DNA of 38,281 bases, taken from the UHGV virus genome UHGV-0173928, one strand, 5' to 3'. Below are positions 28,031-29,354 of the stretch, piece by piece; within the stretch, counting starts at the first letter, position 1; each line of letters opens with the position of its first letter. Source of the DNA: a virus. Below the pieces are notes generated by a model, which was not told the DNA's origin, searched no databases, and saw only the letters and a program-made list of their open reading frames with translations. The translations under genes were made by a program, and so were the position numbers.

Positions 28031-28135
28031 ATTGACTATACGCGATTTTATGTTGACTGTGCACGATTTATTGTTGACTGCACGCGATTTATTGTTGACT
28101 ATACGCGACAGAAACATTGACTGTAAGCGATTTTA
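28031..28135. repeat. origin iterons: five direct ~17-bp repeats (TTGACTRTRCRCGATTT) at ~21-bp spacing
   Basis: Repeats at 28033, 28053, 28074, 28095 and 28117, directly upstream of repA. Confidence 0.8.
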
Positions 28136-28211
28136 GAGTCTGAATATTCACAGCTGTTGATAACAGCCATCCAAATTGACGTCAGGCCGCGCCACACATG
28201 GAGAAACCGTG

Positions 28212-29096
28212 ATGCCGGAAGAAAGTAAAGGCTTCCTTAGCGTTGAAGAAGTTGCAGGAAATACAGGAGAAATCCACAGCCTGAAGCCCAATAACAACAG
28301 CACTATACAACCCATCGCTTTGTTGCGCTTAGGTGTGTTTGTGCCAACCTTAAAATCTACCAATGTGGCGCTACGTCGCGGATCGTCAGTTACAACAAAC
28401 ACAACGAACGCAACTGAAGAACTATCAAGCCTCAAAATTGTTGAGCAGGAAGGCTATGAGGGAATTGAAATTCATGGTCCACGCCTGGATATGGATACTG
28501 ATTTTAAGGTGTGGGTGGGCATAACCTCCGCGTTGTTTGACTACGCACCTGATGATGACGGCATAATCACCCTGCCATTCTCCGAGTTTGCCGATCGATG
28601 CGGCTATCCACGTAAGCGCCTTTCAAAGGCGTTCCGTAAAAGTATTGATGACTCTCTGACACGCATTCAGCAGACAGTTGTCAAATTCCGCTTCCCGGCG
28701 GCAAAAGGTCATCTCAATAACATTAACGTCAACTTGTTGGCATATAGCAGCCTGAATACCGAGCTTGATGTTATCGAGATCCAGCCGCAGAAACAGCTAT
28801 CTGAACTTTACTATGTTGACTATAAGCGAATCCTGAAGCTGAAGATGCTGGATAAACTAGGGCGCAAAGAGACGGCCAAGGTACTGTATACATTCTTTGA
28901 GGCTCTACCCGCCAACCCGGCACCTGTCAGCATTGAGCGCCTTAGAGCGAGGCTTAATCTCAAATCATCCGTTAGCGTGCAAAATAGCGTTATCAGAAAA
29001 GCCATGAAAGATTTGGAAGCTATTGAATATCTTAAATTTTCAGAGATAAAAAACGGCAGGAAAATCGGCTTCCAGATCCATAAGCGCAATCCATAA
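28212..29096 (+). CDS. repA: RepA replication initiator (P1 R-replicon / RepFIB-type family)
   Basis: Conserved GPRLDMDTDFK block and overall RepA-like organisation; flanked by iteron arrays on both sides; ORF track starts at 28176. Confidence 0.88.
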   Translation: MPEESKGFLSVEEVAGNTGEIHSLKPNNNSTIQPIALLRLGVFVPTLKSTNVALRRGSSVTTNTTNATEELSSLKIVEQEGYEGIEIHGPRLDMDTDFKVWVGITSALFDYAPDDDGIITLPFSEFADRCGYPRKRLSKAFRKSIDDSLTRIQQTVVKFRFPAAKGHLNNINVNLLAYSSLNTELDVIEIQPQKQLSELYYVDYKRILKLKMLDKLGRKETAKVLYTFFEALPANPAPVSIERLRARLNLKSSVSVQNSVIRKAMKDLEAIEYLKFSEIKNGRKIGFQIHKRNP

Positions 29097-29098
29097 TA

Positions 29099-29354
29099 TT
29101 GACTATATGCGATAGCGAGAAGTTGACTATAGGCGACATTCGTTGACGCTGGTGGATTTTTGCTGGCGTCAATATTCTGCAAGTCGCTATTGAGATGGCT
29201 TTTAGGGGCATTTCATCGCGTATAGTCAACGTTTCTCCCGACAATATCTTACATAGTCGATCTTTGGTGGAGTTAAATCGACTACAGTCAACTTTTGACT
29301 GTAGTCACATCGCGCATAGTCAACTATTCACATTAACCTTCGCGCATAGTCAAC
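29099..29354. repeat. incA-like copy-control iteron array in both orientations
   Basis: About nine TTGACTATAxGCGA-type repeats or their reverse complements (e.g. 29099, 29123, 29213, 29277, 29295, 29310, 29341). Confidence 0.7.

Follow-up and report, generated by a model that had tools for sequence, protein, structure and literature searches.

A p0111-type replicon with its own iterons on the backbone of a P1-like phage-plasmid

The stretch of viral DNA analyzed here, 38,281 nt in length and called the window below, carries a replication initiator gene with iterons on both sides of it, host-factor sites to its left, and a partition module to its right. The replicon and its neighbors are laid out as follows.

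27920 to 27928, plus strand: perfect DnaA box, TTATCCACA, left edge of the origin, aligned to the annotated DnaA site of P1 oriR
27934 to 28027, no strand: six GATC (Dam) sites, at 27934, 27947, 27969, 27980, 27987, and 28024
28015 to 30264, no strand: segment of 2,250 nt without DNA similarity to P1, in place of P1 61316 to 62806
28032 to 28130, plus strand: five direct origin iterons (incC equivalent) with core TTGACTRYRNRCGA, from repeat finding and pattern matches
28144 to 28163: two imperfect matches to the DnaA box in the gap from the iterons to repA, ATATTCACA (plus) and TTATCAACA (minus)
28212 to 29096, plus strand: repA, predicted iteron-binding initiator of p0111 type, an ORF of 294 aa (Pfam, BLASTP)
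28816 to 28829, plus strand: exact copy of the iteron core within repA, at an offset of 604 nt from the ATG
29099 to 29353, both orientations: downstream iteron array (incA equivalent), from repeat and pattern matches
29389 to 30198, plus strand: GIY-YIG/T5orf172-domain ORF of 269 aa in the swapped cassette, from a domain match
30367 to 32668, plus strand: P1-type partition module, a neighbor of the swapped replicon and not part of it, from comparison with P1 (parA, 30367 to 31563; parB, 31580 to 32581; parS, 32586 to 32668)

A repeat finder returned families of direct and inverted repeats that share a TTGACT...CGA core and flank a 294-codon ORF on both sides. In the window, 11 stretches match the 14-nt degenerate core, TTGACTRYRNRCGA, exactly, every one of them inside 28032 to 29353, and the extent that the sequence-only reading had assigned to the replicon, 28031 to 29354, is indeed that of the iterons. 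In 100 dinucleotide-preserving shuffles of the window, the chance expectation for this core was 0.01; the pattern was built from the same copies, which makes the shuffle test partly circular, and the contrast is very large. Five copies stand in direct orientation at the origin, as had been proposed from the letters, and start at 28032, 28053, 28074, 28095, and 28117, giving spacings of 21, 21, 21, and 22. The incC iterons of P1 are also five forward copies with spacings of 21, 21, 21, and 22. Their sequence, however, is unrelated: the window has TTGACTRYRNRCGA, and P1 has GATGTGTGCTGGAGGGAAA. When up to 3 mismatches were allowed, the P1 iteron (16-nt core; 19-bp consensus GATGTGTGCTGGAGGGAAA) had no match in the window, and the window iteron was absent from 44.8 kb of P1 with up to 1 mismatch allowed. 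A 17-nt consensus suggested earlier, TTGACTRTRCRCGATTT, describes most of the origin copies but is too strict for the whole set, since the copies differ at its positions 8 and 10 and do not all share the TTT tail.

The iteron set is well kept among relatives. All 49 p0111-type loci that we compared have it, including two diverged IMG/VR loci, L045 (IMGVR_UViG_2563366977_000001) and L046 (IMGVR_UViG_2579778606_000002), which represent a diverged P1-group element. In the same locus comparison, the set was absent from the P1 locus and from the SSU5 locus (L004).

One further exact copy of the core had not been mentioned in the sequence-only reading: it lies inside repA, at 28816 to 28829 on the plus strand, where it falls in the codons for YVDYKRI. 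This intragenic iteron has the same offset in all p0111-type loci, L045 and L046 included, even though RepA is 85% identical there and the replicon DNA 77%. We saw no counterpart of it in P1 repA. It could add a layer of control, for example, as a roadblock or an extra handcuffing site.

The other half of the origin holds the host-factor sites. This left part can be aligned base by base to P1 oriR. Before the perfect DnaA box at 27920 stands a decayed second copy, TTATTCAAC; in P1, two DnaA boxes lie in tandem here, whereas only one is intact in the window. The GATC cluster and the Dam-site region of P1 oriR are homologous, at ~78% identity. Five iterons 21 to 22 bp apart, together with the DnaA box at 27920 and the six GATC sites, agree with the origin layout of iteron-regulated theta replicons that use a Rep_3 (WH1-WH2) initiator. 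As to the two DnaA-box-like sequences between the iterons and repA, ATATTCACA differs from the DnaA box at 2 positions and TTATCAACA at 1; at the equivalent place L045 has a perfect TGTGGATAA. In L045, the same DnaA/GATC module adjoins the same iterons.

Downstream of repA, exact copies of the core are found at 29099(+), 29123(+), 29216(-), 29310(-), and 29340(-). Two more reverse copies, a clear one at 29278 and a decayed one at 29247, have 1 and 2 mismatches, respectively, and two degenerate forward copies stand at 29143 and 29295, the latter partial and head to head with 29278. The reverse copies at 29216, 29247, 29278, 29310, and 29340 are spaced by 31, 31, 32, and 30, so that the one at 29247 falls exactly into the 31-bp register that the others keep. 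The array thus amounts to 6 clear and 3 decayed copies; an earlier estimate of about nine copy-control iterons in both orientations holds if the decayed copies are counted and falls to 6 if only clear ones are. The order, forward copies and then reverse ones, is shared with P1, in which the reverse copies are 30 to 31 bp apart. The counts differ, with 2 to 3 forward and 5 reverse copies in the window and 3 forward and 6 reverse copies in P1. The first downstream iteron begins 2 nt past the repA stop codon in the window, while in P1 it overlaps the end of repA.

We considered the inverted repeat at 29143 to 29176 (TTGACGC...GCGTCAA) as a repA terminator and rejected it: no T-run follows it, and a terminator scan was silent. 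Its left arm at 29143 is conserved in L045 and makes better sense as a decayed forward iteron. We also discarded a faint likeness between this decayed copy, GCTGGTGGA, and the P1 iteron GCTGGAGGGA, which is too short to carry meaning.

The repA start codon has a GGAG 8 nt 5′ of it. Of the two winged-helix domains of Rep_3 initiators, Pfam gives Rep3_C at 27.3 bits (cutoff, 21.1), and Rep3_N reaches 22.0 bits, slightly under the cutoff of 22.4. By sequence, RepA had no match in PDB and none among NCBIfam models. BLASTP aligned it to P1 RepA with 115 identities over 272 positions (42%; E value, 9e-71), which makes the homology unambiguous, and P7 RepA gave 42% likewise. This bears out the suggestion made from the letters that the initiator differs substantially from that of P1 while keeping the GPRLDMDTDFK block, which is identical in the two proteins. 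RepA proteins of the RepFIB and SSU5 types are 44 to 49% identical to the window protein over nearly full length; their replicons belong to the same RepA superfamily, yet they are not usefully closer than P1. The names given to this protein vary. GenBank annotators label it "RepFIB replication protein A," and the RefSeq phage records NC_005856, NC_042128, and NC_031129 annotate RepA as "replication helicase," although it is an iteron-binding initiator and not a helicase.

A consensus scan upstream of repA found no correctly oriented σ70 promoter. Weak candidates use the TTGACT of an iteron as the −35 element, with GACTAT or CTGAAT 17 nt downstream. Each iteron begins with this near-consensus −35 hexamer, and the 21-bp register places the next GACTAT 17 nt further on.

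Around the replicon, the window is P1. The match is collinear, at 94 to 99% identity over 6067 to 28014 and 30265 to 38168, with gaps at known variable regions; the two parts nearest the replicon, 22816 to 28014 and 30265 to 38168, are 97.8% and 98.5% identical. Elsewhere in the window, 14027 to 14426 and 16053 to 17227 have no P1 match and belong to the known variable region that separates lxr/hot from pap/pmgT, and the Gly/Ser-rich part of upfB (26401 to 26700) is 81 to 90% identical. On the left, the identity to P1 declines in steps: it is ~100% to about 27700, 91% over 27701 to 27900 (the 3′ end of upfA), and 78% over 27901 to 28014, the part that holds the DnaA box and the GATC cluster of oriR. 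The replaced segment follows. It contains the five origin iterons, repA, the downstream array, and the 269-aa GIY-YIG/T5orf172 ORF, and the only P1-similar bit in it is a 59-nt patch in repA at 76%. From 30265 on, the DNA is 99% identical to P1 again and spans Ppar, parA, parB, parS, gene 23, and gene 22.

Given this frame, one could ask whether the replicon is simply the canonical IncY one of P1 and P7, and the sequence-only reading mistaken about P1. P1 does share the layout and the GPRLDMDTDFK block. We looked for near-identity of RepA and the iterons to P1, the finding that would have spoken for IncY, and did not see it: RepA is 42% identical to that of P1 and P7, 28015 to 30264 has no DNA similarity to P1, and neither set of iterons occurs in the other element. 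These results refute canonical IncY identity, for which we see practically no chance. The earlier proposal of a distinct replicon specificity on a P1 backbone is supported at the sequence level, with flanks at 97.8 to 98.5% identity and unrelated iterons.

The site of the replicon is the same as in P1, adjoining parABS. ParA is 99.7% and ParB 100% identical to the P1 proteins, and all box A and box B motifs of parS are intact. In RCS47 (L002, 8468 to 10682, compared with P1, L003), we likewise found ParA 99.7% and ParB 100% identical to P1; this conflicts with a sentence in PMC5241659, which describes a match to P7 and a distant relation to P1.

The P1 backbone is not complete. At a junction at 22816 to 22827, P1 position 78259, inside gene 26, is joined to P1 position 68008, inside dmt. 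The P1 DNA lost here amounts to about 10.2 kb and includes ban, three tRNAs, tciABC, dbn, and the tail and baseplate genes 5, 6, 24, 7, 25, and 26. Of 515 PLSDB records with matches, a single one runs across the deletion junction, the 65-kb NZ_CP116049.1. The window element is probably a defective, plasmid-only derivative of P1.

A degenerate derivative of this kind might carry the replicon as an inactive relic and be kept by another replicon beyond the window. The ~10-kb deletion of phage genes would be in keeping with that, the 38-kb window is only part of the element, and additional Inc types are known on some P1-derived plasmids (PMC10879196). Against this, repA is an intact ORF, with 100% identity to those of the inducible phages RCS47 and phi456, and the iterons, all of them intact, are conserved in 49 loci. 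Moreover, in those complete P1-like genomes that we examined, the gene occupies the position of P1 repA and is the sole annotated plasmid-replication initiator in the surrounding 13.5-kb stretches. We give this possibility very little chance.

The replicon belongs with the p0111 elements. RepA is 100% identical to the proteins of RCS47 and phi456 and 99.7% to those of SJ46 and JL22, and repA matches the RepB-family gene of pO111_2 (NC_013370.1) in 292 of 294 aa and 873 of 885 nt. The plasmid pO111_2 comes from E. coli O111:H- 11128, and 98.6% nucleotide identity to its rep gene fits membership in the PlasmidFinder type p0111. The p0111 reference is AP010962.1 (E. coli O111:H- 11128), as named in PMC11165635, and our comparison was made with NC_013370.1, which we infer from the plasmid name and the accession order to be its RefSeq copy; pO111_2 is very probably the plasmid that named the type "p0111." Over 1.5 kb, the replicon is 97.8 to 99.9% identical in DNA to the p0111 elements pO111_2, RCS47, SJ46, JL22, and phi456, and the iteron set, the GIY-YIG neighbor, and the place between upfA and parA are all as in the window. 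We found no difference in the replicon from known p0111 elements; the window copy sits in an element with the rare 10-kb deletion.

At ≥95% DNA identity, the same replicon is present in 399 PLSDB plasmids, mostly from E. coli, and in 12 GenBank phage records, which include phi456, RCS47, SJ46, JL22, Ro157c2YLVW, and several entries labeled "P1." A search of GTDB species representatives gave one identical copy only. One PLSDB plasmid, the 97-kb P1-like NZ_CP027133.1 (L001), is typed as "IncHI1B" by PLSDB/MOB-suite; the matched Rep gene is the p0111-type RepA, and the label looks misleading.

The place of p0111 among P1-like elements is already known. In P1-like phage-plasmids, the replication type is IncY or p0111 (PMC9603915, PMC11165635, PMC10879196). 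Among 55 of them, 31 were IncY and 24 p0111 (PMC9603915); Pfeifer and Rocha counted p0111 in 63 of 119 and IncY in 52 of 119 (PMC10879196); and a Salmonella survey found 132 p0111 and 94 IncY elements, with 17 type switches inferred along the tree (PMC11165635). JL22 was typed as p0111, with repA′ (p0111) and an unknown gene in place of repA (IncY) (PMC9603915), and the 42% identity of RepA to that of P1 was already published for SJ46 in 2017. The mosaic of p0111 replicon and P1 backbone is common and catalogued, and the proposal of a mosaic from the letters was correct but established.

Where the p0111 replicon came from is a separate matter. It could have been captured from a nonphage plasmid, such as the RepFIB replicon of an F-type or Klebsiella plasmid. 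The annotators' RepFIB label points that way, and RepFIB-like and SSU5-like RepA proteins, at 45 to 49%, are slightly closer than P1 at 42%. A near donor, however, is not visible: among at least 5,000 plasmid matches to RepA, 395 are at ≥95% identity, 4,601 are under 60%, and just 4 lie between 60% and 95%. The only intermediates that we found, L045 and L046, with RepA at 85%, are also in P1-like genomes, where PmgB-like, PmgC-like, and tail-tube genes flank the replicon. The cassette, moreover, carries a DnaA-box/GATC module homologous to that of P1 oriR. Finally, the identity to P1 declines gradually (100%, 91%, and 78%) through the 3′ end of upfA, which suggests that the donor already had the upfA-oriR context. 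Capture from a nonphage plasmid is therefore highly improbable.

L045 and L046 share with the window the iteron core, the five identically spaced origin copies, the DnaA/GATC module, and the intragenic iteron, at 85% identity in RepA and 77% in replicon DNA. Their downstream array has 2 forward and 4 reverse copies. The replicon lies between PmgB-like and tail-tube genes and not between upfA and parA, and there is no GIY-YIG gene. Directly downstream of the incA-like array, L045 has three or four GGGCAATTNNTACACC-like motifs in both orientations (5130 to 5330), which could be a centromere or another protein-binding array.

These comparisons lead to our preferred reading, to which we assign a probability of about 0.9: the locus is the low-copy maintenance replicon of a P1-like phage-plasmid, of p0111 type, and a homologue of P1 oriR-repA-incA in which the initiator and the iterons have codiverged to a new specificity. 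The unit is thus, in its entirety, homologous to the replicon of P1: its host-factor half is still recognizable, and the initiator has diverged along with the sites that it binds. If it works like P1, theta replication would start when RepA monomers, bound to the five origin iterons, open the adjacent Dam-methylated region together with host DnaA. At these iterons, RepA would also repress its own promoter, and the downstream array would limit the copy number by titrating RepA and by pairing with the origin ("handcuffing").

The GIY-YIG gene, which the window has between the array and parA and P1 lacks, is probably not part of the replication machinery. The phage records that have the ORF are exactly the 12 that carry the p0111 replicon, and it ends 67 nt short of 30265, where the right junction with P1 is sharp; in pO111_2 the gene is split into two ORFs. 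One may speculate that it is a homing-type nuclease which cuts the IncY allele during coinfection and drives gene conversion of the whole replicon. We regard this as quite unlikely; if true, it would explain why switches from IncY to p0111 have been reported repeatedly on trees of phage-plasmids, why the right boundary is sharp and the left one graded, and why the gene has decayed in pO111_2.

A codiverged replicon bears on compatibility with P1. According to the P1 annotation, the replication incompatibility determinants of P1 are the iterons incA and incC. Since the window iterons are unrelated to these, the p0111 replicon should not cross-react with the IncY replicons of P1 and P7, and the two would be expected to be compatible at the replicon level. 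ParA, ParB, and parS are of P1 type, so partition (incB) incompatibility with P1 should persist.

This shared partition module is one reason to ask whether the replicon could still be functionally incompatible with P1, through cross-binding of RepA, competition for shared host-factor sites, or dominance of par or immunity. The P1-type parS, ParA, and ParB make incB-type incompatibility expected, and the host-factor half of the origin is homologous to that of P1. In the papers that we consulted there was no experimental compatibility test of p0111 and P1; PMC11165635 says only that p0111 and IncY "can theoretically be compatible," and in these papers co-occurrence is reported for the P1 and D6 groups only. 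On the other side, the iterons that determine replication incompatibility in P1 have no similarity to those found here, and surveys handle IncY and p0111 as separate Inc types. Functional incompatibility of the replicons is unlikely, and we favor the codiverged p0111 replicon with its own specificity.

As a discovery, the p0111 replicon in this window carries little weight, because the IncY/p0111 dichotomy is in PlasmidFinder and in several surveys. What our analysis adds is small: a base-level map of its iterons with their P1-like spacing, the conserved iteron within repA, and the DnaA-box/GATC module in common with P1. A full-text search of the open literature for "p0111" with "iteron" returned one unrelated review, and such a map, a routine description in itself, may be absent from the searchable open literature. 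It could be of use in the design of mini-replicons or incompatibility tests. P1-like elements carry ESBL and other accessory genes, and the replicon type decides which of these elements could share a cell.
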